Of a DNA stretch of 64,000 nucleotides, positions 2,129 through 61,583 are shown in pieces. Location of the stretch: positions 2,213 to 66,212 of IMG/VR virus record IMGVR_UViG_3300014205_000227. The stretch is one strand, 5' to 3'. Source of the stretch: a virus (Duplodnaviria > Caudoviricetes). How positions within the stretch are numbered: position 1 is the first letter of the stretch; each line of letters opens with the position of its first letter. Below the pieces are notes generated by a model. That model did no database searches, had not been told where the DNA came from, and saw nothing but the letters and a program-made list of their open reading frames with translations. The position numbers were made by a program, and so were the translations under genes.

Positions 2129-2163
2129 GAGCAGGCAGGGACTGTTCCTAAAGAGAGAAAAAA

Positions 2164-8283: not shown

Positions 8284-8298
8284 TGATAGAATCAGCGC
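8284..8298 (+). promoter_or_regulatory. Extended -10 promoter (TGaTAGAAT), 6 nt before ATG 8299; probable leaderless mRNA
   Basis: TAGAAT 8287-8292, spacer CAGCGC, no SD. Confidence 0.5.
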
Positions 8299-10776
8299 AT
8301 GCCTCGCGTTGATCTAATCCTAGACTTTCCCAGAACCGAAATGAAGCGGGAAGGGTGGGGCGTTACTCGAACCTGCGCGAACTTCGCTTTTACTGAGTAC
8401 GTCGCTGGCAAGGGATATCAGAAGTCGTCGATACCTGATGGTTTCTGGCAACAACCCGACACTGGCTCGCTGATGCTCAAGCCCCACGTCTTTACCGATG
8501 GTTGGGAGCAAGACCCCGCTTTCGACTATGAGCGAATGACGCTGAGTGAGTTCGATCTAGGGACTCGCGACGACGGTCTCGACCTCTTCAAGCAATCGGC
8601 CGGCGTAAACTTCGGTGGCGCGAGATCGCGTCGAATCGTCGTTCGTCATCATGACAAAACCCAAGACTTCGGTCAGGTGAGTTCGATGATGTCGAGCCTG
8701 ATCTATCTGATCCAGACAGTCAACAACAACAATATGGGCTGGGCGATGCGAACAAAGACGCCTTTGCTCATGAACGAAGGTTTCGGGGTCAATGTCGTTC
8801 CTTCTGGAGTTCAGGTCGACCGGGCTGATCCTTACTTTGGCCTTAACTGGGGTCGACGTTGGTATTTCGAGATCAAGATGACCGGCTTCGGCATTCTCTG
8901 GGAGAACATGGCAGAGAACCCGATGGATGCTCAAGGTCGATGGGTCAAGCGAAAGACGCTCAATCTCTCAGAAGCGGGAATCAACATGACGAACCGTTTC
9001 CAGGTTGCGATCATTCCGTTCGGAGATCGCTACATTCATATCCAGGTTGGCCAGTCATATTCGATGTTCTCTTTTGCGAAGATTCGCTTCGGCAAAGTGG
9101 GAGCTTTCAAGGTGGCTCATTGCACCCACGACATTAGCGAGAACGGTCTGCCGATCGACTATAGCTCTCTCGAAAACCAGTGGATTAAGACCGAGTCGGC
9201 TCATGTTCATATCGCTCTTCGGCTCAGCAATTACACCTATGAGCTAAGACCGTTTCGCATTCGCTACCCTCAGCAACACGAATGCACTCTCAGCATCGAG
9301 GATATGGGCTATCCGAGACCGGTCGACTTTCCAAGCATGGATGCGTTCGGTTACAGGCCTGGCGACTCTGAGATCGATGCTTCTTACTACGATGCGAAGG
9401 GTGGCGTTTTTAACAAGGACGTGAACTCGGCTTTCGTGCCTCGCATGATCATGTATGCGTCGGCAAACAAGGTCTATACGCCTGAGCTTTGGTACTTCAA
9501 CTCTGAGGTCGGCGCTGAGACATACACTCCGCCATGGACGCCTTACTCTGCCCCATGGCAGTACATTCGCATTCCAGAGACTTTGAGGCTCGGCGCGTCG
9601 AATGTCGAAGTGAAAACTCCGGATGAGGATCGATGGCAGAAAATCTATAAGAAGGGCGGACCGTTCCGAATAACCATTGATGGCGATGTCGAATGCGATG
9701 GATACTTCAAGCGTAACAATCCGACCGTAACCGGCATGCCAGAGAGCCACGGCTGGCAAATCGATAACGAGAGCGAGGGCGAAGACTTATGGCACCGGCT
9801 CGATCATACGCCGATTGGCGAAGCCCCTCGTTTCGATGGTGAGAGCTTAGGTCCGACCATCGTCAAGTACATCAAGCGATGCGCCTTTGCTGATGCGGAG
9901 ATCGTGGTCGACGATGCTGAGATCAATGACATCAAGATCGAAGATTTTGTCGACTTGAACGATCTCAAGACGCTCAACGCCGATACGCGATGCGGCGAGC
10001 TTATTCGAGAGCTTTGCAAGAAGCTAGGCGTTCAGAATCGACCTAGCATCTACGTCCGACCAATTCAAGGGGTTTGGCATATTGGCTTCAAGTCGGTTCA
10101 TATCCAAGGAGACCCAGACCCTTACCTGAACTTCTGCTTCGGTGGCGTTGGACCGACTAACCTTCCCGATGCAGATCGATATCGAGACGATCTCGCTCAT
10201 GATGACCTAGACGCTAACAATCAGCGTTGGATATGGATTCACTCGAACATCGAAGTGACAGTAGCTCTCTCTCGATACAACCTTCTTAAAGTGATCTCGA
10301 CGAAGAACAGCGGTGGCGAAGTCGAAGCGACGGGAATCTTTATCGAGCCTCACCCAGACGTTCTCGATAATCCGGCTTCGCAGTTGTTCGAAGGTCGACT
10401 TCGACCTGAGATCATCGGACCTCCTGAGATCACCGCAACGAAAGAAGATGACATGGAGCGTCAAGGTCGACGACTTTATGACATGGAGTCGAGAGACAAT
10501 ATCACGATCTCATTCGATGGAGAATGGCAGAAGCGTATTCGAGCGAATCAGAAGTGTCGGGTGCTTGGCTACGACAATGAAGGAATGCCTTGCCAATTGG
10601 GAATCTTTAGAATCGAGCATATCGACCGCACAATCGACGCAGACACAGAGACCGGCGAGCGAGAACGCTCTCACCTTTGGACCGGCGACTACGTGCTAAC
10701 GTATCTCGGACCTGGCACCGACGAAGAGTGGCCTATGTTCAGCACGTTCCTTCCGCCTGAGATCGTGCCCGGGTAA
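8299..10776 (+). CDS. Large tail-tip/baseplate hub-like protein
   Basis: 825 aa immediately after tape measure; family not recognised. Confidence 0.55.
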   Translation: MPRVDLILDFPRTEMKREGWGVTRTCANFAFTEYVAGKGYQKSSIPDGFWQQPDTGSLMLKPHVFTDGWEQDPAFDYERMTLSEFDLGTRDDGLDLFKQSAGVNFGGARSRRIVVRHHDKTQDFGQVSSMMSSLIYLIQTVNNNNMGWAMRTKTPLLMNEGFGVNVVPSGVQVDRADPYFGLNWGRRWYFEIKMTGFGILWENMAENPMDAQGRWVKRKTLNLSEAGINMTNRFQVAIIPFGDRYIHIQVGQSYSMFSFAKIRFGKVGAFKVAHCTHDISENGLPIDYSSLENQWIKTESAHVHIALRLSNYTYELRPFRIRYPQQHECTLSIEDMGYPRPVDFPSMDAFGYRPGDSEIDASYYDAKGGVFNKDVNSAFVPRMIMYASANKVYTPELWYFNSEVGAETYTPPWTPYSAPWQYIRIPETLRLGASNVEVKTPDEDRWQKIYKKGGPFRITIDGDVECDGYFKRNNPTVTGMPESHGWQIDNESEGEDLWHRLDHTPIGEAPRFDGESLGPTIVKYIKRCAFADAEIVVDDAEINDIKIEDFVDLNDLKTLNADTRCGELIRELCKKLGVQNRPSIYVRPIQGVWHIGFKSVHIQGDPDPYLNFCFGGVGPTNLPDADRYRDDLAHDDLDANNQRWIWIHSNIEVTVALSRYNLLKVISTKNSGGEVEATGIFIEPHPDVLDNPASQLFEGRLRPEIIGPPEITATKEDDMERQGRRLYDMESRDNITISFDGEWQKRIRANQKCRVLGYDNEGMPCQLGIFRIEHIDRTIDADTETGERERSHLWTGDYVLTYLGPGTDEEWPMFSTFLPPEIVPG

Positions 10777-18617: not shown

Positions 18618-19097
18618 ATGGCTAACTTCGTCTTCAACATCGCCAAAGGTCGAGCGGTCGAGCTTTACAACCGAGTAAAGAGCAATGATCCTTCCACGTC
18701 GGCTTTTGTCATTGTGCTCTTAGCCGCATCGGGGCTCGAGTCCGATGCTACGTTGATGGACTACGATTCGCTCGCGGCAATTCTAGCGGCGGCAAATGAT
18801 GAGCTTACGAACGTTGGCTACGCTCGGGTGGTTCTGACAGATACAGAGCTTGCGGCTCTTCCCGCTCCCGATGACGCCAACAATCGCTACGACATCGATA
18901 TTCCTGATCCTTCTTGGCCTTCGATTGCGGCTTCACCTGGCGGAAGTGGGAAGCTTCTTGTTTGCTACGATGCAAACACTGGCTCGGGTAGCGACTCCGA
19001 TATTCTGCCAGTGTCGGCTCATGACTTCGTAGTCACTTTCGACGGTAACACGGTCGATGGAAACGTGAACATCGCTGGATTCTTGAGGGCGGCTTAA
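18618..19097 (+). CDS. Small virion structural protein (MANFVFNIAKGR family), copy 2
   Basis: 159 aa; ELTNVGYARVVL resembles EITGTGYTAGGVTL of 15057-15506. Confidence 0.55.
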   Translation: MANFVFNIAKGRAVELYNRVKSNDPSTSAFVIVLLAASGLESDATLMDYDSLAAILAAANDELTNVGYARVVLTDTELAALPAPDDANNRYDIDIPDPSWPSIAASPGGSGKLLVCYDANTGSGSDSDILPVSAHDFVVTFDGNTVDGNVNIAGFLRAA

Positions 19098-19109
19098 AAG
19101 GATAATAAT

Positions 19110-19442
19110 ATGGCTACAGATTACATTCTTATCAACCACGAAAACTTAAAAGGCCAAGCGGTAAAACAACTGGTTTTAGGCGCAGATCAGCTATTAGTTC
19201 AATTAGAGACGTGGGTTCCTACATTTGGCGGAATGATCGACGGTGGATTCCCTGCAAATAACGACGCATCAAAATACAAAATGTTTTCCGATCTTGTGGG
19301 CGTTCAGGGCGAGACGGTAGATAACTACACTAAGTCAAGAATGATTTTCCAGGCTATTCACGGGTTGTACATAGGTTTCAATGTTGAAACTAGAACCGGG
19401 CTATACAACGATATCAGATCACTTGCTAACAAGTTAAGGTAA
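19110..19442 (+). CDS. Hypothetical protein
   Basis: 110 aa; AAGGA RBS; atypical composition. Confidence 0.6.
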   Translation: MATDYILINHENLKGQAVKQLVLGADQLLVQLETWVPTFGGMIDGGFPANNDASKYKMFSDLVGVQGETVDNYTKSRMIFQAIHGLYIGFNVETRTGLYNDIRSLANKLR

Positions 19443-21044
19443 ATGGCCTACGCCTATCAGCTTCCTTTAGAGGTTGTGGCGTCCGCTGTGGGCGGGTCTA
19501 ATTCTACAGACTTCACCCACTGCCTAAAAATCGTAGGCGATAACAACCTTAAAATCGTTGCACTGGGCGGATTAGTCGAGAACCTAGACGGCTCTTTTCG
19601 TCCATGTGATTTAGTTATCGCTACTGATCTTGCGGGAACCTCTCTTATCGGCGGTTGGGAGATCGGTAGTTACGACGGAACGCTTGGAAACTTAACTCTC
19701 TACCTCAAGCGAAGCACTGACAGTATTTCAAACGATCAACTGTATCTGTGCGTTGGAGACGTAGCTGTTACAACGTACCAAGGCGGTTCATTAGGCGATG
19801 CTTGGGACTCTAACTCCGTAGTTGTTTTGCCATTCCGAAATGGCACTACTCTTGACCTAAGTGATTCCTCTGGTAACGGCACTACATTCACAAACGTTAG
19901 TCTAATTGCCTCAGCAGGTGTACATGGTGACGGTGCGGCTCACGGTAATGGGTCGAGTCGGTTAGCCTATGTATCAGGTTTCTCAGGAATTAGTGCCGCA
20001 CCTGTAACTATCGAATGCTACTTCTACTTCGACGACGTTAATTCTAACCGCGTACTATCGACAATTGGTAATCTTAGCAGTTCTCAGCATCGTTGGCAGT
20101 TGGATGTAGACAGTGGCAACGTTCGTTGGATCAATGCCTATAACGCGCTTGCCTATGCCGCCACAAAAGGCGGATTAAGTAATGGTAACTGGTATCACGT
20201 AGCGGGTGTTGAGGTTTCTTCTTCATCTAGGTATGCATACGTTGATGGAGTACCGGGTTCTCAAGAAACTTCTACCAATGCCGCCAATAGCATCAACGCA
20301 CTCGGTATCTTCGCGAATACACACAATGGCATATACGGGAACGGGCAACACATATCTGGTCACATGGATTTCTATCGTGTCTCTAGTGTGGCTAGATCGA
20401 CAGCGTGGTTAGTAGGCACTAGCAACAACCTTCACGCACCAACGGCACAAGAATCAACCTCAAACGCTTGGTGGATTGCTGGAGCGTGGACGCCAATTGC
20501 TACCGGTCAAACAATCGACATTAACCAATCGTCGGAAACCGACACGGCATTGTCGATCACGCCTAGAAAAAGAGTAGCAATCGGAATCGCTTCGGAGACT
20601 GATTCAGCCTTATCGATCTCTCCAAAGAAGAGAATCGCAATCGGAATCGCACAAGAGCTATCAAGCGCGTTCTCGATCATCGCTCGAAAGAAGGTATCGA
20701 TAGGAATCGCGAGCGAAGTCGACACAGCACTCGCGTTCTCTTCTAAGAAAACCGTTCCTATCGGTCTCGCGTCAGAAACTAACTCCGCGCAGATCATCCG
20801 GCCACTCAAGAGGGTGGCGATCGGAATAGCAAATGAGAGCGACTTCGCTCTCGACTTCGAAAGTTTGAAAGCTGGAACCATCGGTCTAGCGGTCGAGACT
20901 GACTCGGCGCTTTCGATCACGCCAAGAAAGCGAGTTTCTATCGGACTCGCTGTCGAGACAGATACAGCGTTTGGGATTGTCTTTGTGGCAGGCTCAAATA
21001 ATCCGTTCTTCTATCAGCGGTATATTCTCGCCAGAAGGCGATGA
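19443..21044 (+). CDS. Fibre protein 2: DUF2341-like N-terminus, LamG/ConA-like lectin domain, eight 20-aa C-terminal repeats
   Basis: TIECYFY...WYHVAGV...YVDGV LamG pattern; IGIASETDSALSITPRKRVA-type repeats. Confidence 0.7.
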   Translation: MAYAYQLPLEVVASAVGGSNSTDFTHCLKIVGDNNLKIVALGGLVENLDGSFRPCDLVIATDLAGTSLIGGWEIGSYDGTLGNLTLYLKRSTDSISNDQLYLCVGDVAVTTYQGGSLGDAWDSNSVVVLPFRNGTTLDLSDSSGNGTTFTNVSLIASAGVHGDGAAHGNGSSRLAYVSGFSGISAAPVTIECYFYFDDVNSNRVLSTIGNLSSSQHRWQLDVDSGNVRWINAYNALAYAATKGGLSNGNWYHVAGVEVSSSSRYAYVDGVPGSQETSTNAANSINALGIFANTHNGIYGNGQHISGHMDFYRVSSVARSTAWLVGTSNNLHAPTAQESTSNAWWIAGAWTPIATGQTIDINQSSETDTALSITPRKRVAIGIASETDSALSISPKKRIAIGIAQELSSAFSIIARKKVSIGIASEVDTALAFSSKKTVPIGLASETNSAQIIRPLKRVAIGIANESDFALDFESLKAGTIGLAVETDSALSITPRKRVSIGLAVETDTAFGIVFVAGSNNPFFYQRYILARRR

Positions 21045-21850
21045 CATTTATAACGGCTGGACAACTCGACCCGACAAAGAGACGGCTCTACTTCCACATC
21101 GTTGGTCCCGATGGTATTTCCCCTGTCGATACCGAGGATGGCGAACAGCCTCAGATCGCTCTCAACTCGACAGACGTGTTCGACGATGCTGGAATCGGAA
21201 CCTTGGTTCTGATCGGAAGCGGTCGATACTACGCTGTTCTCGATCAGGCTACGGTCGCAGACCCGGGCACTCTGATTCAGTCTCGATATAAGTCTGACAA
21301 TACGGCTGAGATTCCCGGTGATTCAGCGCAGATCACAGGCGTCGACCTTGATCTCGTGGGGCAACTCGGCGCGACTCCGGAACAGCTTTGGACCTATTAT
21401 CAGCGAACTCTCACTGAATCAAACTCTCCGGTCTTAGTTCTTGCTGATGACGACGACGGAGAGCCGGTGGGAATGATCAAGCTAGTGAAAAAGGCAAACT
21501 TCACTCGCAAGGTAACGATTCCAAACGTTCCGGCCGGGATTACGGTCGAGAAAGCTTTCTGGAAGATATCGGTCAATCTCGACACTCCAGACGGCGATCC
21601 TGCTCAGTACGTGCTCAAAGAGATCACTGGCTTGGTTACGGCGTCCGGAACTATCGTTCACGATGGATCAGGCGACAATATCGCAGTTCTTCAATTCGAG
21701 CTCGGCGTCGACGATCTCGACGATGCGCCGGTCGATACTCAGCTTTGGTCATCAGTGAAGATCATTCTCTCGAACGGTAAGGTCCATTCGCCAATCAAGG
21801 GATTCGTGCCGGTTCGCATCTGGAACCCTGGAATAGAAGCCATAAGCTGA
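21041..21850 (+). CDS. Fibre adaptor / BppU-like structural protein
   Basis: RRLYFHIVG...QPQI...IGSGRYYAVL N-terminal domain; last gene of late operon. Confidence 0.45.
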   Translation: MTFITAGQLDPTKRRLYFHIVGPDGISPVDTEDGEQPQIALNSTDVFDDAGIGTLVLIGSGRYYAVLDQATVADPGTLIQSRYKSDNTAEIPGDSAQITGVDLDLVGQLGATPEQLWTYYQRTLTESNSPVLVLADDDDGEPVGMIKLVKKANFTRKVTIPNVPAGITVEKAFWKISVNLDTPDGDPAQYVLKEITGLVTASGTIVHDGSGDNIAVLQFELGVDDLDDAPVDTQLWSSVKIILSNGKVHSPIKGFVPVRIWNPGIEAIS

Positions 21851-21870
21851 GATTAGGCTATAATTCGAAT

Positions 21871-21935
21871 CGAGCCAAGCGACGGGCTTCGATGTTCCTC
21901 AAACATTGGCCCCCGATCAAAACGGGGGCATTAAC
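21871..21935 (+). ncRNA. Candidate small RNA with anti-RBS seed
   Basis: TATAAT 21859-21864; hairpin, then GATGTTCCTCAAACA, then GCCCCCG/CGGGGGC hairpin. Confidence 0.35.
21909..21929. terminator. GC-rich hairpin at convergence of late and leftward operons
   Basis: GCCCCCG-atcaaaa-CGGGGGC; weak U-tracts. Confidence 0.5.
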
Positions 21936-21944
21936 TAGATCGAC

Positions 21945-22736
21945 TTAGCTCTTGCCGCCTTGGGCAACTTGAAGATCTGGAACCTGATCTCCCTCAGCTT
22001 CGGCCTGATCCCCTTCGAACGTAACTTCTTTGGGTTGACCGTCCATCGCATCGGCTACGACATCTTGCATCGTATTGATCGGTGTCGCCTTGAAGACTTT
22101 ATCTCCAACCACGAACTTCTCTTTCTGCGATACGACGCCAAGTCCGACGTAATCGGTATCGCCCGATTCTAGTTTCTTCTTGAACTCTCCCTTCCACTCA
22201 TTGAGCGGGACTAGCTCTCGCATGAAAGCCGCATCCTCCAGTTCATCGGCTGAGATCGTAGCGATCACTACGAAGCGTCGACCGGTGCCATCGTCGAGCG
22301 ATACTGGATTGTTGACCGTTGGTCTGGAAGTTTGAAGCTTCTCTGCATGCACGTTCACGCAAATTTGCGTGTAGGTACCGGCTGAGACCTCAATCAGTTC
22401 TGCTTCTGCGCTCAGCTTCTCATAGATAGACCGAACGACTCCAGCTTTGTTTGCGACCACGGTCTGAGCATTCGAAGATGCTCGCGGCTGAGTGGTCGAC
22501 GTATGCCCTAGGTCCATCGCGGCTTGACTAGGGGTCATCGCTTCGTTGTCGAGAGCGATCTGATCTTTTACGTACTCATTCCAAAGAGCGAGCGACGTCT
22601 GAGACAGGGTCTCAGGCTTGATGTTCTCAGGTTGCAAAGATTCGCGCTTGGTATGCCCTTCTCTTTGCATTTGCTGTTTGAATAGGTTGAATGACTTCTG
22701 AGCGTTGTTCGCCAGCTTAGCCAGTTCTATGTGCAT
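21945..22736 (-). CDS. Hypothetical protein
   Basis: 263 aa; GGAGGAACA RBS. Confidence 0.7.
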   Translation of the reverse strand: MHIELAKLANNAQKSFNLFKQQMQREGHTKRESLQPENIKPETLSQTSLALWNEYVKDQIALDNEAMTPSQAAMDLGHTSTTQPRASSNAQTVVANKAGVVRSIYEKLSAEAELIEVSAGTYTQICVNVHAEKLQTSRPTVNNPVSLDDGTGRRFVVIATISADELEDAAFMRELVPLNEWKGEFKKKLESGDTDYVGLGVVSQKEKFVVGDKVFKATPINTMQDVVADAMDGQPKEVTFEGDQAEAEGDQVPDLQVAQGGKS

Positions 22737-22756
22737 GAATGTTCCTCCAATACCGA

Positions 22757-23065
22757 TTAGCTCGGTGATTTAGTAGTTTGATCGAATTGGCGTCTTTCAA
22801 TCGCGTTTGAGCGAATGCTTTTGCCGTGGTGGGTTAAAGTGAAGTGACGGCGCCGGCCAATAACCGGGCGAATCAAATTGAGATTGCAAGCTTTCACGAA
22901 CAGATTCGTGCATGAAGTTAGCATTCGCATCCTCGCCGGATGGAAGGGCTTCTCACACTCGACGAAAGCCCACTCATCTGGAAAGCACTTCTTCGCGATC
23001 GGCATCCAGTTAATGTCGGTACCTTCTGGATCGTCGAGACCTTCCATCAAAAGGAAAGCCATCAA
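22757..23065 (-). CDS. Hypothetical protein
   Basis: 102 aa ORF packed in the leftward operon; start uncertain. Confidence 0.5.
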   Translation of the reverse strand: MMAFLLMEGLDDPEGTDINWMPIAKKCFPDEWAFVECEKPFHPARMRMLTSCTNLFVKACNLNLIRPVIGRRRHFTLTHHGKSIRSNAIERRQFDQTTKSPS

Positions 23066-23073
23066 CTCTTCGT

Positions 23074-23814
23074 CTAAAGCAACGTCTGTTGGCTTGATGG
23101 GGATTTTCCTTGATTGAGGTCTCTGAGCATGCCGATTATTCCGCCAGCCGTGGCGAGCATGTCGCCTTTGGCAGTATGCCTATCTGCTTCCGGGATCTCG
23201 ACGCCATACCACTCAGCGACGGTATCGAGATTCGATTTATAGCGATTGTGAAAGCCTGCGTCTCTGAGAACCCGAAAGAGGTTCGCTGAACATCGCCAAG
23301 CTCTATTGCAAGGCAAAGCCATGTTCGAGCGAGCACAGGCGGCTTTCAGCATCGAAGAGTCTGCTTCTGAGTTATGCGCCCAAGGTGAGACTCGGTAGTG
23401 CTCAGGATCGATAAACTTCGTGGTGAACTTCTGCATTCCCAAGAGAGCTTTCTCTTCGGGAATTCCTTCAATGTGACAAAGCATCCAAACCGCGTCGGCT
23501 TTGTTTGGCGCGTCCTCTTCGTTCGGGAACTGATCAGCGTCCCAGAGATAGAGATAGTCTTCGTCGTATTGCCACTGGATGGTTAAGCCCTCGTCGTGGG
23601 TGATCAGATTGCTTTCTCGACCGTTATCGATCTTAGTCGACCAAATGCCTTTTAAGCTCCAATTCCAGTTTGATCGGTTGTACTCGACCGCCGCCATTGC
23701 AACCTCAGTAAGCGCGATATCTTGCCATCGAACGCAATCTTCGAGCGGCATGATCGAGTCGGCTTCGCTCGGCAAGGTTCCGAACTCCATGTCGATGATT
23801 AGGAACTCAGGCAT
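23074..23814 (-). CDS. DEDDh 3'-5' exonuclease (DnaQ/epsilon-like)
   Basis: IIDMEFGT (ExoI), HNSEADSSML (ExoII) and HTAKGDMLAT (ExoIII). Confidence 0.8.
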   Translation of the reverse strand: MPEFLIIDMEFGTLPSEADSIMPLEDCVRWQDIALTEVAMAAVEYNRSNWNWSLKGIWSTKIDNGRESNLITHDEGLTIQWQYDEDYLYLWDADQFPNEEDAPNKADAVWMLCHIEGIPEEKALLGMQKFTTKFIDPEHYRVSPWAHNSEADSSMLKAACARSNMALPCNRAWRCSANLFRVLRDAGFHNRYKSNLDTVAEWYGVEIPEADRHTAKGDMLATAGGIIGMLRDLNQGKSPSSQQTLL

Positions 23815-24236
23815 TAAGGCTTCTCCATCTTAGGCATTGGTCCAGCTTTCTTTAGGAACGTTCGAAAAGCGTCGACAACTTCGTCATCGTTGGTCGCTTG
23901 GCTCGAAGCTTCAACGAATTCTTGATTGAGAGCTTCGTAGTTTGTAATGCGATAGCAGACCCAACGTCGAGAATGCTCAGAGAACCGCTCAAGTCTCCAT
24001 CCGTTAGCTTCTAGCCAGAGCTTGAATTCGTCGAGCGGTGCTAAGTATTCGTGGCCTGCGTAGCAAAGGGTCGCTTGTTGCCCTTGGAACGCTTTTCTGA
24101 TTACTAGCTCATTGAGTTCGTAAACAGAGCCGACAGGACAGGACATTAGCTCATTGATCAGGTATTCGCGAGCTTGAATCTCTTCGGGGTGAAGTTCGGT
24201 AGTTCTGCGCCTCACAGAGAGAATAGGCTCACTCAT
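23814..24236 (-). CDS. Hypothetical protein
   Basis: Tightly coupled ORF; ATG 24236. Confidence 0.55.
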   Translation of the reverse strand: MSEPILSVRRRTTELHPEEIQAREYLINELMSCPVGSVYELNELVIRKAFQGQQATLCYAGHEYLAPLDEFKLWLEANGWRLERFSEHSRRWVCYRITNYEALNQEFVEASSQATNDDEVVDAFRTFLKKAGPMPKMEKP

Positions 24237-24525
24237 GATGATCATCCCCTGCTTCCGGCTCTTCCGGCATCATCGCGGTTTTCTCCATCTTCCCGTTAGC
24301 AACCATGCTCTCGACAACCTTGGTAGCGTTCTCGACCGAACCTTGAGGCATGTGAACGCATGAGTAATAGTCACAGACCCAAAGTCCACCTATGCAATCG
24401 ATCCGAAACTCATAGTAAGTCTCGCCATCCCAGTAAGCGATCTCGACGGCGTTGTACTTTGCAACCTTTCGCCAGCCGTCATCGAGGAAAGTTTTTTGCC
24501 AGTCATCAGAAGTGATCAAGCTCAT
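24229..24525 (-). CDS. Hypothetical protein
   Basis: ATG 24525 in TAATG overlap with upstream stop; 98 aa. Confidence 0.55.
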   Translation of the reverse strand: MSLITSDDWQKTFLDDGWRKVAKYNAVEIAYWDGETYYEFRIDCIGGLWVCDYYSCVHMPQGSVENATKVVESMVANGKMEKTAMMPEEPEAGDDHHE

Positions 24526-24929
24526 TAGTCGATTCGAACCCCTCGCAGATCGTTTGGCGAATGCCAGATCATTTCTCGATAGTCGAGAATGTTCGTCATC
24601 AAAGCGAAGCATGCGTAATTCTTCCAAGCCGGTTTAGGATCGATTAGCGCAAGGGGAAAGCGCGTGTCTGCGAGCTTAGGCTCTTCGAAGAGGCGGTCGC
24701 AGACCTTGATGTACTCAATCATCAGTTCGAGCATTGAGTACACGTTCCGGCCAAGGCAGGCCGTATAGATCGAGTCCAGTGAAATGACCTCAGCCATTCG
24801 ACCGGAATCGAGAGCGTAAGACTGGATCAGATGGGGGAAGCGATCAGCCGCGAGAGCGAGCAAAGTTTCTACTCTCTCTTCGCTGTTTAGCGACTGCCAC
24901 TTGTGAATGAGCGCAAGATTTACAGACAT
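24525..24929 (-). CDS. Hypothetical protein (first gene of leftward operon)
   Basis: 134 aa; GAGGAACA RBS. Confidence 0.65.
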   Translation of the reverse strand: MSVNLALIHKWQSLNSEERVETLLALAADRFPHLIQSYALDSGRMAEVISLDSIYTACLGRNVYSMLELMIEYIKVCDRLFEEPKLADTRFPLALIDPKPAWKNYACFALMTNILDYREMIWHSPNDLRGVRID

Positions 24930-24951
24930 ATTCGATTGTTCCTCGCTGACT

Positions 24952-24986
24952 ATTCTATCTCATAAATTCAGAAAATACGATAGAAT
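24952..24986. promoter_or_regulatory. Back-to-back divergent promoters (TAGAAT on each strand)
   Basis: ATTCTATC-N19-GATAGAAT inverted repeat between divergent operons. Confidence 0.55.
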
Positions 24987-24996
24987 GCGATTGCTT

Positions 24997-25326
24997 ATGA
25001 AAAACGCGAGACCGATTGATTCAAAGGTCGACCTTGAAAAAGCGAACGCATTCTCGAAGCTGAAAAACATTCCGCTAGACCTAGTGGTGATGTCTGATGT
25101 GGGTTCTGGAAAACGGGGTGCTCTCCCGCCAGATGTTCGAGACAAGTTCGTCTTTCGAGTGTTCGAAGGAAAGAAGCCAAGAGAACTCAGATCAGAGTTC
25201 GGAAAGCATTTTGAATGCGACCGCTCGATCAGCAACTGGCGAAGCTGGGCTTTGCAGGTGATCGAGCAACGACAAGAAACCGATAAGTCGGGGGAGTGGC
25301 ATAAAGCTTATGGTTCTGATCTTTGA
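24997..25326 (+). CDS. Hypothetical protein, possible DNA-binding regulator
   Basis: First rightward gene; basic; ISNWRSWA resembles an HTH recognition helix. Confidence 0.5.
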   Translation: MKNARPIDSKVDLEKANAFSKLKNIPLDLVVMSDVGSGKRGALPPDVRDKFVFRVFEGKKPRELRSEFGKHFECDRSISNWRSWALQVIEQRQETDKSGEWHKAYGSDL

Positions 25327-30076: not shown

Positions 30077-30095
30077 ATTCATGGAGGAACATCAT

Positions 30096-35470: not shown

Positions 35471-35510
35471 AACGTACACATTGTATCACGTTAGGGGGTT
35501 ATAAATGCAG

Positions 35511-37700: not shown

Positions 37701-37770
37701 TGATACATTGTAACATGCACGGGTGTTCAATTCGAGAAAATGCAGAAGATACGAAGGTCTGATGTAGAAT
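37701..37770. promoter_or_regulatory. Divergent promoter region (TACATTGTA bidirectional -10; TAGAAT; operator-like 14-mer)
   Basis: TACATTGTA 37704-37712; AAATGCAGAAGATA 37738-37751; TAGAAT 37765-37770. Confidence 0.45.
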
Positions 37771-41095: not shown

Positions 41096-42232
41096 ATGCC
41101 TCAAGCGGAAACGAAATTAGCGGTCTGTTACTCAAAACAGTATGTCGAGAAGAACTGTCTCGAAATGGCGCAGGAACGTATCTCGCATGCGTTCGATATC
41201 TGCGATGACATCAGCGTCATGTTCTCAGGCGGCAAAGACTCGACCGTCGTTCTGAACCTTGCTCTCGAAGAGGCTCGAAAGCGAGGGAAGCTTCCGCTCG
41301 AAGTTGTCTTTTTTGACGAAGAGTGCATAAGCCCAGATACGGTCGACTACGTTCGAAGAGTAAGCGAGCTTCCCGACGTCGACTTCAAATGGCTCTGCCT
41401 GCCGGTCAAGCATCGAAACGGCTGTTCGCGTAAGGTTCCGTTCTGGTATCCCTGGGACCCCGCAAAGCGCGATCTCTGGGTAAGAGAGCTTCCAGACGAA
41501 GCAATCACAGAGCTTGCCGGATTAAATGGACACACGATCCCCGAAAGCAATCATCTGTTCTATATCCCAAACGGCCGCAAGACAGGGGTTCTCTTTGGCA
41601 TTCGAGCAGACGAGAGTATCACTCGACTTCGAAGCGTTACCAAGAAAGCCGAAGACAACTATATCACCTATGACGAAGCCGATCACTGGATCAAGATCAA
41701 GCCGATTTACGACTGGACTTCTCAAGACGTATGGCTCGCGCCTCATGAATTCGGATGGGACTACAACCGAACATACGATCTCTATAATCAGCTAGGCATT
41801 CCTATTCAAGCTCAGCGAGTCGCGCCTCCGTTTGGCGAAGAGCCGATGCAGTTGCTTTGGATGTGGCAGAAGTCTTACCCTGATCTTTGGGACAAGATGT
41901 CTCTCAGGGTCGAGGGAGCGAGAGCCGGTGCTCGCTACTCAAAGACTGAGGCTTTCGGGTTCGGTCGACGTGGCTGTCTGCCTGGTATGGACTGGAAAGA
42001 CATGGCGATGATGTACTATTCGCGCTGGGGCAAAGAAGGTCAAGCGATCATCGCGGAACGCTTTACGCAAGAGGTAGCTCTTCACACTAAGAGAACCAAA
42101 GGTCGAGCGGTTCCGATGGAAGAACCCGACCCTATCAGCGGTCTTTCGTGGAAGTTTCTTTGCCAGATCGCTCAACGTGGCGACTTCAAAGGTCGCAAGC
42201 AACTTCCAAAGGGAGTAAACCGAGGAACATGA
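41096..42232 (+). CDS. PAPS-reductase-family / DUF3440 protein (IbrA/YbdN-like)
   Basis: MFSGGKDS, FFDEE, GIRADES, KPIYDW, QRVAPPFGEEP and RVEGA. Confidence 0.85.
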   Translation: MPQAETKLAVCYSKQYVEKNCLEMAQERISHAFDICDDISVMFSGGKDSTVVLNLALEEARKRGKLPLEVVFFDEECISPDTVDYVRRVSELPDVDFKWLCLPVKHRNGCSRKVPFWYPWDPAKRDLWVRELPDEAITELAGLNGHTIPESNHLFYIPNGRKTGVLFGIRADESITRLRSVTKKAEDNYITYDEADHWIKIKPIYDWTSQDVWLAPHEFGWDYNRTYDLYNQLGIPIQAQRVAPPFGEEPMQLLWMWQKSYPDLWDKMSLRVEGARAGARYSKTEAFGFGRRGCLPGMDWKDMAMMYYSRWGKEGQAIIAERFTQEVALHTKRTKGRAVPMEEPDPISGLSWKFLCQIAQRGDFKGRKQLPKGVNRGT

Positions 42233-42813
42233 TTGAAGTAAATCTCGAAACCGTACCGGCAAACATCAAGGAATCGATTGAGAATGCCCCTATCTCTCGC
42301 GTCGTATGGCTCGACCGCTCGCAACTCTTCGCCAACGATTACAACCCAAACCATCAAGCGCCGACCGAGAGCAACCTGCTTACTCAGTCGATCTTCGAGG
42401 ACCTTTGGACACAGCCGATCGTCATTCGAACGACAGGCGAAATCGTCGACGGCTTCCACCGGTTCAATATCTCGACCCGTCCAGAGATACAAGCTCTCTT
42501 TGGTGAATTCGTGCCCTGCGTCGTCTTGCCAGACGCGAAAGACCGGGCTTCTCAGATGCTCTCGACCATCAGACATAACCGGGCTCGAGGCGTTCACGCA
42601 ATCCGGCCAATGGCGGCGATTGTGAAAGACCTGATGGACAATCACGAAATCACAGAAGAGGACTTGAAGGTTCGATGCGGAATGGACGAAGAAGAGATCG
42701 AGCGACTGTATGACACGATGGGTCATCCAGAGCGTGTCGGCGGTTCTCACGGTAGCTTCTCGAAGGGCTGGAAACCTGGCGAGCGGCAAGAGTTCAGAAT
42801 CGACGATAAATAA
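42229..42813 (+). CDS. ParB-like protein (IbrB/YbdM-like)
   Basis: ANDYNPN, WTQPIV, IVDGFHR and STIRHNRARGVH. Confidence 0.85.
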   Translation: MIEVNLETVPANIKESIENAPISRVVWLDRSQLFANDYNPNHQAPTESNLLTQSIFEDLWTQPIVIRTTGEIVDGFHRFNISTRPEIQALFGEFVPCVVLPDAKDRASQMLSTIRHNRARGVHAIRPMAAIVKDLMDNHEITEEDLKVRCGMDEEEIERLYDTMGHPERVGGSHGSFSKGWKPGERQEFRIDDK

Positions 42814-42829
42814 ATTCTGAAAATATAAC

Positions 42830-42858
42830 TTGCGTTGTTCTCCCAAGCATGGTACATT
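42830..42858 (+). promoter_or_regulatory. Sigma70-type early promoter TTGCGT-N17-TACATT (with TG)
   Basis: Exact 17-bp spacing, AT-rich upstream element, GAGGAACA RBS downstream. Confidence 0.7.
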
Positions 42859-48382: not shown

Positions 48383-48427
48383 GCACGTCGCAAGCTCGGT
48401 AAGCCTTATCTGTTTGAGGAACAAAAA

Positions 48428-51957: not shown

Positions 51958-51969
51958 TGATACATTGTA
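51958..51969 (+). promoter_or_regulatory. Extended -10 promoter TGaTACATT
   Basis: Intergenic; followed by TTGAGGAACATC RBS. Confidence 0.5.
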
Positions 51970-51993
51970 TACTTTGAAGTTGAGGAACATCAA

Positions 51994-58608: not shown

Positions 58609-58724
58609 GTGTTTTCGAATATTTTCTGAAAATTCTTTTCTTTGAACCTGAAAAAGATCGCCAGTAGACAGATATGAGCCTATCGAGCACGTCGACGACT
58701 GTCGTATGATAGGCGTCGAGGAAC

Positions 58725-59233: not shown

Positions 59234-59794
59234 ATGACAGAAGAGAAACCGCTCTGGGAGCAACTAGAAGAAGAGTCAGACGAAAATTACATTCTCTTCT
59301 GCGCGTATCGCGACCTTGGTCCAGATCGAACTGTTCCTAAACTTCTAGCCAAGCGGGGGAAGGGTAACGAGAATTACACGTATGAACTCTCGCGCAAATG
59401 GAACTGGGTTCAGCGATGCAATAAGTGGGATATACACCTAGCCACGCTCAGTGCTGAATCTCAAGAGAATTCTCACAAAGGCAAGATCGATAACTATCGG
59501 TCTCGGAACGAAGAGTTCGCCAAAGATGCCCAACAGACAGCGCGAATCATGCTCGCGGTAGCCAAGACGAAATTATCGGCCGCCGTAACGAAGTTCAAGG
59601 GAACTGAGGGCATGAACGAAGAAGAGAGAGCCGCGCATATCGAGAACGTGCCGATTGATCGAGCGATCGGACCTTTGGTTCGCTCAGCGGTTCTAGTGTT
59701 TAACTCCGGATCGATGGCAGAAGCTCAGGCTCTCGGTATCGATCAGATGCTCAACATGCTCGAACCCGGGGACGTCGACGAAGATGAGGAGTAA
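59234..59794 (+). CDS. Terminase small subunit
   Basis: LWEQLEEES...FCAYRDLGPDRT...WNWVQRCNKWD; precedes TerL. Confidence 0.75.
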   Translation: MTEEKPLWEQLEEESDENYILFCAYRDLGPDRTVPKLLAKRGKGNENYTYELSRKWNWVQRCNKWDIHLATLSAESQENSHKGKIDNYRSRNEEFAKDAQQTARIMLAVAKTKLSAAVTKFKGTEGMNEEERAAHIENVPIDRAIGPLVRSAVLVFNSGSMAEAQALGIDQMLNMLEPGDVDEDEE

Positions 59795-61583
59795 GCTCCA
59801 GCGACTTCTCGATAAGTCGTCGATCATGCGCCTCCCCATGGTCAAGAAGGTTCGGCGCCATCGACAGCGCCTGATCAGCCTTTCGCCAGATCGAGCCATC
59901 GATATCATCAATGAGTGCTTGCGAGCCTCTTGGCCTACCGAAGAGATCAGGGCTAATCTTGAGTATCGACGCGCAGTATACGAACGCTGTCAGCTAGACG
60001 CCAATGAGCAAGAGAAAGAGAATGAGAAGTGCTCGAAAGACTGTCGGTACTGGATCGAAACCTGGGCTTGGACATTCGACCCACGTCTTAGCGAAGGTAA
60101 GTTTCGACCGTTCTTGCTGTTCCCGGTTCAGGTCGACTATATCGACTGGCTGAACCTTCGATACAAGAACCAAGAAGATGGCATAGTCGAGAAGAGCCGC
60201 GATATGGGCTTCTCTTGGCTCTCGGTTGCTTGGGCAACTTGGAAGTTCCTGTTCGAAGATGGTTTTACTTGCGTCTTCGGCTCGAACCTTATTCGCAACG
60301 TCGACACGCTCGGCAACCATAAGAGCCTGTTCGAGAAGATTCGGATGATCTTGCGAGCACTGCCGGTCTGGATGCTTCCGAAGGGGTTCTCGAAGCGAGC
60401 GCATCTAAACACTAAGCTCAGAATCATCAACCCTGAGAGAAACGGCATTATCACAGGTGAGGGAGGTCATAACATCGGCAGATCAGACCGCGCCTCAATC
60501 GTCTTTATCGACGAAGCCGCGCACGTCGAGCGAGCTGAAGAGGTCGAGCAAGCACTATCTCAGACGACCGACTGTCGCATCTGGGGATCAACGCCGAAAG
60601 GTTCTGGCAACCTCTTTTACACCAAGGTTAAGTCTGATCAGTTCCCGGTCTTTCGTTTTCACTGGCAACAAGACCCGAGAAAGAATCGCTGGATACTTCG
60701 CAACCCAGACGGCTCGGTCTTTGCAGAAGGTCATGGCGAATGCTCAGCCCCGGCCGGCATGGTCCCGTTTTATCCTTGGTATGAAGATGCCAAGAAACGA
60801 TTCACGCCGCTCACGGTCGCTCAAGAGATCGATATCGATTACGCAGGTTCAATCGATGACGTCGTATTTCCCTCGCACTGGGTTCAGGCATGCGTTACGA
60901 TCAGTCTCACCCCCGGCGACTATCGAGAAGCAGGTCTGGACGTCGGCGGTAGTGGTAGCGATGGAGCGGAGAGCGTTTATACCCTTGTCGCCATGCCGGT
61001 CGCTCTCAAGATAAAGCGATGGTCTGGGCTTTCACCGGTTAAGACAGCGCGTCGAGCTATCCGGTACGCGAGAGAAGATCAGGTGCATTCGTTCAAGTGG
61101 GACCACACTGGCGTAGGCGAGGGCGTCTCTGGTGAGATTCAAGACTCAGCAACCGCCGAAGATGTCACTTTCAAGATGCAGATGGTCAAGTGGGGCGGCA
61201 AGCCATCGAAACGAATGTGGCCTAGTGGTCGACGCTCGAATCAAATGTTCATGAGTGCCAAAGCCGAAGATCACTGGATATTGCGCGAGCGCATGCGAAA
61301 GACTTACGAGCACGTTCTCTTTCTCCAAGGTCATCCCGAGGGAGTCGAGCACCCACTCGACGAACTGCTATCGATTCCGAAAGACAATAAGCTGATCAGC
61401 CAACTCTCGACCATCAGGTTCGAAGAGCGAGACAACGGCAAAATTACGATAGAATCAAAACTCAAGATGAAGAAGCGGAACGTAGCATCGCCCGATATTG
61501 CGGAGTCGCTGATCATCGCCTGTTCGCCTGATCATCCTGAGCTTGAAGTAACTGGCTCGCACTCAGAAGAAGTCTATGCTTAA
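59784..61583 (+). CDS. Terminase large subunit
   Basis: EKSRDMGFSW (Walker A-like), FIDEAA (Walker B), GLDVGG and SPDIAESL nuclease motifs. Confidence 0.9.
   Translation: MRSKLQRLLDKSSIMRLPMVKKVRRHRQRLISLSPDRAIDIINECLRASWPTEEIRANLEYRRAVYERCQLDANEQEKENEKCSKDCRYWIETWAWTFDPRLSEGKFRPFLLFPVQVDYIDWLNLRYKNQEDGIVEKSRDMGFSWLSVAWATWKFLFEDGFTCVFGSNLIRNVDTLGNHKSLFEKIRMILRALPVWMLPKGFSKRAHLNTKLRIINPERNGIITGEGGHNIGRSDRASIVFIDEAAHVERAEEVEQALSQTTDCRIWGSTPKGSGNLFYTKVKSDQFPVFRFHWQQDPRKNRWILRNPDGSVFAEGHGECSAPAGMVPFYPWYEDAKKRFTPLTVAQEIDIDYAGSIDDVVFPSHWVQACVTISLTPGDYREAGLDVGGSGSDGAESVYTLVAMPVALKIKRWSGLSPVKTARRAIRYAREDQVHSFKWDHTGVGEGVSGEIQDSATAEDVTFKMQMVKWGGKPSKRMWPSGRRSNQMFMSAKAEDHWILRERMRKTYEHVLFLQGHPEGVEHPLDELLSIPKDNKLISQLSTIRFEERDNGKITIESKLKMKKRNVASPDIAESLIIACSPDHPELEVTGSHSEEVYA

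Follow-up and report, generated by a model that had tools for sequence, protein, structure and literature searches.

A convergent operon boundary with a probable shared 3'-end hairpin and an orphan ribosome-binding word in the genome of an uncultured virus of the Caudoviricetes

We analyzed the short spacer at which a rightward and a leftward gene cluster of an uncultured virus (Duplodnaviria; Caudoviricetes) converge. Most likely it is an ordinary operon boundary, and its closest likeness is to the hairpin-bearing spacers between convergent phage genes. In the reading that we favor, and hold to be probable, the segment is the 3' boundary of both operons; it has a shared 3'-end hairpin and one copy of a ribosome-binding site (RBS) word, GAGGAACA, that is a relic or a chance occurrence and has no function. 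The original prediction had proposed that a late small RNA or 3'UTR fragment from this spacer, complementary to the RBSs of about a dozen early and middle genes, could block their translation. The tests run gave little support, and none that is independent, for a stand-alone sRNA gene, and nothing beyond the complementarity itself supports an RNA switch in the spacer. Two by-products of the analysis are more solid: a private RBS word on the non-structural genes, often placed 6-15 nt after a -10 element, and a convergent junction without a canonical terminator.

Genomic setting

The source record is a 66,212-bp virus contig from IMG/VR (51.6% GC) that is classed as linear and is estimated to be 75% complete. 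The window, by which we mean the whole 64,000-nt stretch of DNA that was analyzed, covers nearly the whole of this record, and about 5% of it is non-coding. The TerL gene is at 59784-61583.

The rightward genes up to position 21850 are of virion type. The last of these late genes in the ORF list (21041-21850, plus strand) encodes a protein of 269 aa. Its N-terminal ~100 aa are common to tail/fibre-type proteins, and its homologues span only the N-terminal 32-52%; Pfam and PHROG searches with this protein returned no match. The leftward early/middle operon occupies 21945-24929 and begins downstream of a TAGAAT -10 element, with a GAGGAACA RBS. This word is the RBS of both the first (24944) and the last (22747) gene of the operon. 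The last gene (21945-22736, minus strand; own GAGGAACA RBS at 22740-22747) encodes a protein of 263 aa that is a complete orphan, as its sole match among 5.8 billion protein clusters is itself, and Pfam and PHROG searches were again without a match. Upstream of it in the same operon is a gene identified by PHROG as exonuclease-like. The spacer between the end of the plus-strand gene at 21850 and the end of the minus-strand gene at 21945 is 94 nt long (21851-21944). Thus, a rightward late (tail-fibre) operon would meet a leftward early/middle DNA-metabolism operon at a common 3' boundary.

Hairpins and the shared 3' end

The TATAAT hexamer, the hairpins and the anti-RBS segment that the original prediction described are all present where it had placed them. 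The first hairpin, H1 (21869-21893), can form on both strands. It is an imperfect hairpin, ATCGAGCC/GGCTTCGAT, with 8 pairs and a 1-nt bulge (plus strand, -8.7 kcal/mol; minus strand, -8.1 kcal/mol). The second, H2 (21890-21908, plus strand), is formed by CGAUGUU/AACAUUG, with 7 pairs including one G-U, and holds the anti-RBS word UGUUCCUC (21893-21900). The CCUCA loop (21897-21901) in an ATGTT/AACAT-type stem, as had been claimed, is present in H2, but the stem is weak: H2 alone is worth only -1.9 kcal/mol, and its 5' arm shares 4 nt with the 3' arm of H1. The third hairpin, H3 (21909-21929), is a perfect 7-bp all-GC structure on both strands (GCCCCCG/CGGGGGC; -14.1 and -14.6 kcal/mol). The window has only four perfect GC-rich hairpins with a stem of at least 6, and H3 is the strongest among them. 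When the 94 nt were folded as a whole, the plus strand folded better than shuffled sequences (z -2.85; 1 of 200 shuffles was as good), whereas the minus strand did not (z -1.16). The difference between the strands is due largely to G-U pairs.

H3 lies 16 nt past the stop of the minus-strand gene and 58 nt past that of the plus-strand gene, which makes it the obvious candidate for a shared 3'-end hairpin. We consider it the probable shared 3'-end hairpin of both convergent operons, with a role as a weak terminator or a stabilizer. Like an intrinsic terminator, it is a GC-rich stem-loop (7 GC pairs, -14 kcal/mol) just past the stop codons, but a U-tract is lacking. The tails ATTAACTAGA and CAATGTTTGA carry only 3 and 4 T in 10 nt, compared with 6-8 T in 10 nt for the four canonical terminators of this phage (3279, plus strand; 35549, minus; 36273, minus; 54656, plus), in which stems of 12-15 bp are followed by T-runs. 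There is no T-run on either side of H3, and a terminator scan does not flag it. With no U-tract, H3 probably terminates transcription incompletely and/or blocks 3' exonucleases, and some convergent read-through would be expected. We infer the transcript ends: H3, probably aided by H1, would serve as the common 3'-end structure for both sets of transcripts, as a weak terminator without a U-tract, as a block to exonucleases, or as both.

Boundaries of this kind have been mapped in other phages. Bidirectional terminator regions between convergent genes of phiKZ and PAK_P3 were detected by ONT-cappable-seq, and 3'UTRs shorter than 100 nt are the majority in those data (PMC10914365). As in these regions, a stable hairpin is central between two convergent stop codons in the genome studied here. 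H3 differs from them in that it lacks the pair of A-tract and U-tract, and its stem is only 7 bp.

An RBS word without a start codon

The word GAGGAACA occurs 13 times in the window, where 2.43 copies are expected, and none of 100 shuffles reached 13. Twelve of the copies have a start codon 0-6 nt downstream, and all of these are sense-strand RBSs inside the non-structural region 22740-58725. They include the copy at 42222, which serves the ATG at 42229 within the frame 42148-42813. RBSs of the late genes are unlike the early word (AGGAGAAACA, GGAGAACAT, GGAGAAAAC), and those that had been quoted as evidence that the virion genes use other RBSs were found. A literature search for the octamer GAGGAACA returned only primer noise.

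The copy in the spacer (21893-21900, minus strand) is, as originally proposed, the only one of the 13 without a start codon. No ATG, GTG or TTG was found within 17 nt downstream. The minus-strand sequence that follows the word is TCGAAGCCCGTCGCTTGG, and the first canonical start, a TTG 17 nt away, opens a frame of 6 codons. A functional RBS should be followed, 3-9 nt after the Shine-Dalgarno (SD) sequence, by the start codon of a plausible ORF; the orphan copy is not.

The surroundings of the orphan word resemble those of genuine RBSs. Its flanks, TT..TC, equal those of real RBS copies, so that the reported 13-nt match at 48411 is real (48411-48423), and the match at 51980, given as 12 nt, extends to 14 of 15 positions. 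The UGUU/UGAGG/AACA mini-hairpin at the orphan word is also found at the genuine RBS at 48411. In a test with random flanks, an extension of at least 5 nt to one real RBS had p = 0.056, and at least 5 nt to one RBS plus at least 4 nt to a second had p = 0.008, although the latter test was picked after seeing the data. Genuine RBS copies also seldom match each other as well as the orphan matches those at 48411 and 51980. When 15 nt of flank on each side were scored with position weights, the orphan did not exceed random flanks (p = 0.17).

A single copy outside of RBS positions is fewer than the window-wide chance expectation of 2.4. Away from RBS positions, however, GAGGAACA and the words that differ from it by one mismatch are depleted (45 found in the window, 63 expected), and the exact word is absent from gene interiors, where about 2.3 copies are expected. 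Given this depletion and the small non-coding fraction of the window, a stray intergenic copy is expected about 0.1 times or fewer, which is below the raw shuffle figure. Overall, the orphan resembles an RBS somewhat more than a random match would, but it may have arisen by chance.

In the favored reading, the minus-strand GAGGAACA would have no present function and would be either the surviving RBS module of a lost or rearranged minus-strand gene or a chance copy. These two origins are about equally likely. The other 12 copies are all RBSs, and the minus-strand operon just upstream of the orphan has the word at 22747 and 24944, so that the orphan is most simply explained as derived from an RBS. 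The simplest origin is therefore an RBS module whose gene was lost at a fast-changing module junction, with chance nearly equal to it. No relative was found that could show the supposed lost gene. We infer the lack of function and, if this is correct, the complement of the word is carried passively in the 3'UTR of the late mRNA. Several observations count against the favored reading: the depletion of the word outside of RBSs, the double flank match (p ~0.008), the plus-strand fold (z -2.85) and the rarity of TATAAT, described below. As this case shows, an over-represented RBS word can mimic a regulator through a single stray copy.

Two candidate coding features of the spacer were weighed and rejected. 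Read-through at the stop codon of the 263-aa gene would add a frame of 28 codons that is open past the TAA, and such a frame has a chance probability of ~0.26. An 18-codon plus-strand ORF that begins at ATG 21891 has no RBS and overlaps the stop codon of the convergent gene. The open 28-codon frame (21858-21944, minus strand) crosses H3, the orphan RBS word and H1 and ends at a TAG; it is probably meaningless.

We noted a word similar to the complement of the RBS elsewhere. TGTTCCTA, which agrees with the anti-RBS word at 7 of 8 positions, is present at 2143-2150 (plus strand), in a spacer of 35 nt upstream of the late gene at 2164. This occurrence is probably due to chance.

A TATAAT hexamer in the spacer

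A perfect TATAAT hexamer is present at 21859-21864 (plus strand), with neither a -35 element nor an upstream TG. A sigma-70 scan calls no promoter in the spacer region. Only 3 copies of TATAAT were found in the window (8.1 expected), and TANAAT is similarly scarce (39 found, 66 expected). This depletion of -10-like hexamers fits selection against spurious promoters of the sigma-70 type. Since words of this kind are depleted genome-wide, a perfect TATAAT in the spacer is not trivial. Most other promoter-like -10 elements before genes have (G)TG one or two bases upstream, for example in TGTGATACAAT, GTGATAGAAT, TGTGTATAAT, GTGCATAAT, TGTTAGAAT, TGGTACATT and TGATACATT. The hexamer at 21859 has AGGC in front, in place of (G)TG.

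Alternative readings

A late RNA from the plus strand (~21851-21932) could occlude about 12 early/middle RBSs and so help to switch translation from early to late genes. We consider this unlikely. Such an RNA could come from the late operon as its 3'UTR, from which processing might leave a stable fragment that comprises H1, H2 and H3, or it could be a transcript that starts from the bare TATAAT. If there is an anti-RBS function, it is most plausibly exerted by the 3'UTR as part of the late mRNA. The word lies before H3 for rightward transcripts and after it for leftward transcripts; it is thus likelier to be transcribed as anti-RBS, and the anti-RBS sequence should sit on the late 3'UTR, whatever the TATAAT does. 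In the proposed sequence of steps, CCUC in the loop of H2 would nucleate on GAGG of early/middle mRNAs, and pairing would then extend to the complete UGUUCCUC:GAGGAACA duplex. The accumulating late mRNA, or a 3' fragment processed from it that ends at H3, could titrate the RBS tag on ~12 genes and shut off early translation, an outcome to which we would give little credence.

The complementarity is exact over 8 nt to 12 RBSs, all of them of non-structural genes, and reaches 12-13 nt for two of these. CCUC is wholly unpaired in the predicted fold (unpaired probability 1.0), while UGUU is paired, so that 4 of the 8 nt of the seed are free. The favorable fold of the plus strand (z -2.85; minus strand, -1.16) is consistent with an RNA of this kind. 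The duplex of the UGUUCCUC 8-mer is worth -10.8 kcal/mol, but opening all 8 nt of the seed costs 3.9 kcal/mol, which leaves a net energy of only about -7 kcal/mol, before the opening of the mRNA. There is one seed, in one weak hairpin (-1.9 kcal/mol), and no second copy of the anti-RBS seed was found in the window. The TATAAT is without -35 or TG, and H3 is without a U-tract. The late-gene RBSs GGAGAAACA and GGAGAACA would pair less well than the early word, yet the CCUC loop would also contact late RBSs of the GGAG type, and selectivity thus depends on only 4 further nucleotides, which are buried in the stem. When RNAduplex was applied to the seed region and all 101 translation start regions, 78 sites reached -10 kcal/mol or lower, versus 72.5 with shuffled seeds, and there was no discrimination.

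There is precedent for some of the parts. Late phage ncRNAs derived from 3'UTRs are documented in PAK_P3: ncRNA1 and ncRNA2 are structured fragments that accumulate late and lack a transcription start site of their own; RNA-seq and Northern blots detected both, and no function is known for them (PMC10914365). Unlike these, the RNA considered here is only predicted. In phages P1 and P7, the antisense RNA c4 displays sequences in loops that pair around an RBS and block translation; it has a single target (icd-ant) and two complementary segments, is processed, and has been demonstrated experimentally (PMC12197685). The candidate shares with c4 that a phage RNA would display an RBS complement in a loop, but here one 8-nt word would serve ~12 putative targets, and the RNA is a prediction. 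In T4, the endoribonuclease RegB and the repressor RegA shut off many early mRNAs in a coordinated way at their RBSs (PMC3014915). These effectors are proteins, unlike the anti-RBS candidate. A homologue of RegB (PF10715) was not found in this genome. If the anti-RBS reading were true, the 3'UTR of a late mRNA would contain a compact RNA-level switch from early to late translation, an RNA-only counterpart of RegB and RegA.

Bacterial sRNAs with C-rich loops that bind Shine-Dalgarno sites include RNAIII and RsaE of S. aureus and RoxS of B. subtilis. These are conserved RNAs with several C-rich loops, promoters of their own and terminators with a U tail. The candidate resembles them in its CCUC-type loop, which is complementary to GAGG/GGAG SD cores, and differs in that there is a single seed, in one weak hairpin, and no U-tract at H3.

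It is more doubtful still that the word is a functional RBS-like element on minus-strand read-through transcripts, either as a 30S-binding stand-by site or stabilizer (of the STAB-SD type) or as the RBS of an AUC-led mini-ORF of 11 codons. The RBS-like flanks are as expected for such an element, and read-through is plausible since H3 has no U-tract. GAGGAACAUC is in the same register as GAGGAACAUG (with AUG) at 58718 and 42222, and the AUC frame is open for 11 codons up to the TAG (frame 21858-21944). However, AUC is a very rare start codon, and so short a frame can be open by chance. GAGGAACATC is also present at 30084 and 51982, but the start used at both is an ATG downstream of it, and the fold of the minus strand is not above that of shuffles.

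A DNA-level or protein-binding role for the hairpins (a hotspot of recombination or module exchange, or a regulator site), with the RBS word incidental, is very unlikely: the spacer does lie exactly at the junction of the late and early modules, and its two flanking genes are both orphans, consistent with recent gene turnover, but the spacer and the hairpin arms are not repeated in the window, against which a BLAST search of the spacer gave no significant repeat and only matches at chance level.

Searches for relatives and known RNAs

No relative close enough for a test of conservation was found. Megablast of 19000-25000 against 50,697 phage records gave no match, nor did tblastn of both flanking proteins against the same records. 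Scans of IMG/VR with both flanking proteins, a Gp3-like protein and TerL returned no relative usable for comparison, and an exact-pattern DNA scan for the seed plus H3 found no match. In a search of 5.8 billion protein clusters, the nearest TerL was 51% identical and is encoded on a 6-kb contig; identity to TerL of cultured phages is at most 35%. One locus (L001) was rejected as a relative, as it has only an N-terminal domain in common and is not syntenic. In two others (L003 and L004), with TerL 41-44% identical, GAGGAACA is not used as an RBS.

Searches for known RNAs gave no match to Rfam 15 in the window at the gathering threshold. A permissive Rfam search gave a single match at chance level (E = 3.8), and a tRNA scan of the window was empty.

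Some of the distant TerL relatives bear cyanobacterial or Chloroflexota names. The cyanobacterial palindrome HIP1, GCGATCGC, which was counted as a clue to the host, has 0 copies in the window, where 3.5 are expected.

Further features of the RBS word and of transcript starts

The A-A-C-A tail that follows the SD core in the 12 RBS copies (22740-58725) resembles the S1-dependent consensus of T4 RegB targets, GGAGRAYARAA, whose A-A-Y-A tail GAGGAACA thus shares (PMC3014915). This consensus is matched even better by GGAGAACA and GGAGAAACA of the late genes than by the early word. In the host of this phage, the tail may act as an S1 or enhancer feature.

In front of at least five copies of GAGGAACA, at a distance of only 6-15 nt, ends a -10-like hexamer, often with TG upstream. 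The hexamers are at 24952-24957 (minus strand), 37765-37770, 42853-42858, 51961-51973 and 58705-58710. With a -10 element so near, the mRNAs would begin almost at the SD sequence and have 5'UTRs of roughly 10-20 nt. GAGGAACA may therefore combine an initial transcribed sequence with an RBS.

Two extended -10 elements are even closer to genes. TGATAGAAT (8284-8301) and TGATACAAT (35477-35488, minus strand) end 6 nt and 0 nt, respectively, before annotated starts (ATG at 8299, and the minus-strand GTG at 35479), which points either to mRNAs without leaders or to start codons that were set wrongly.
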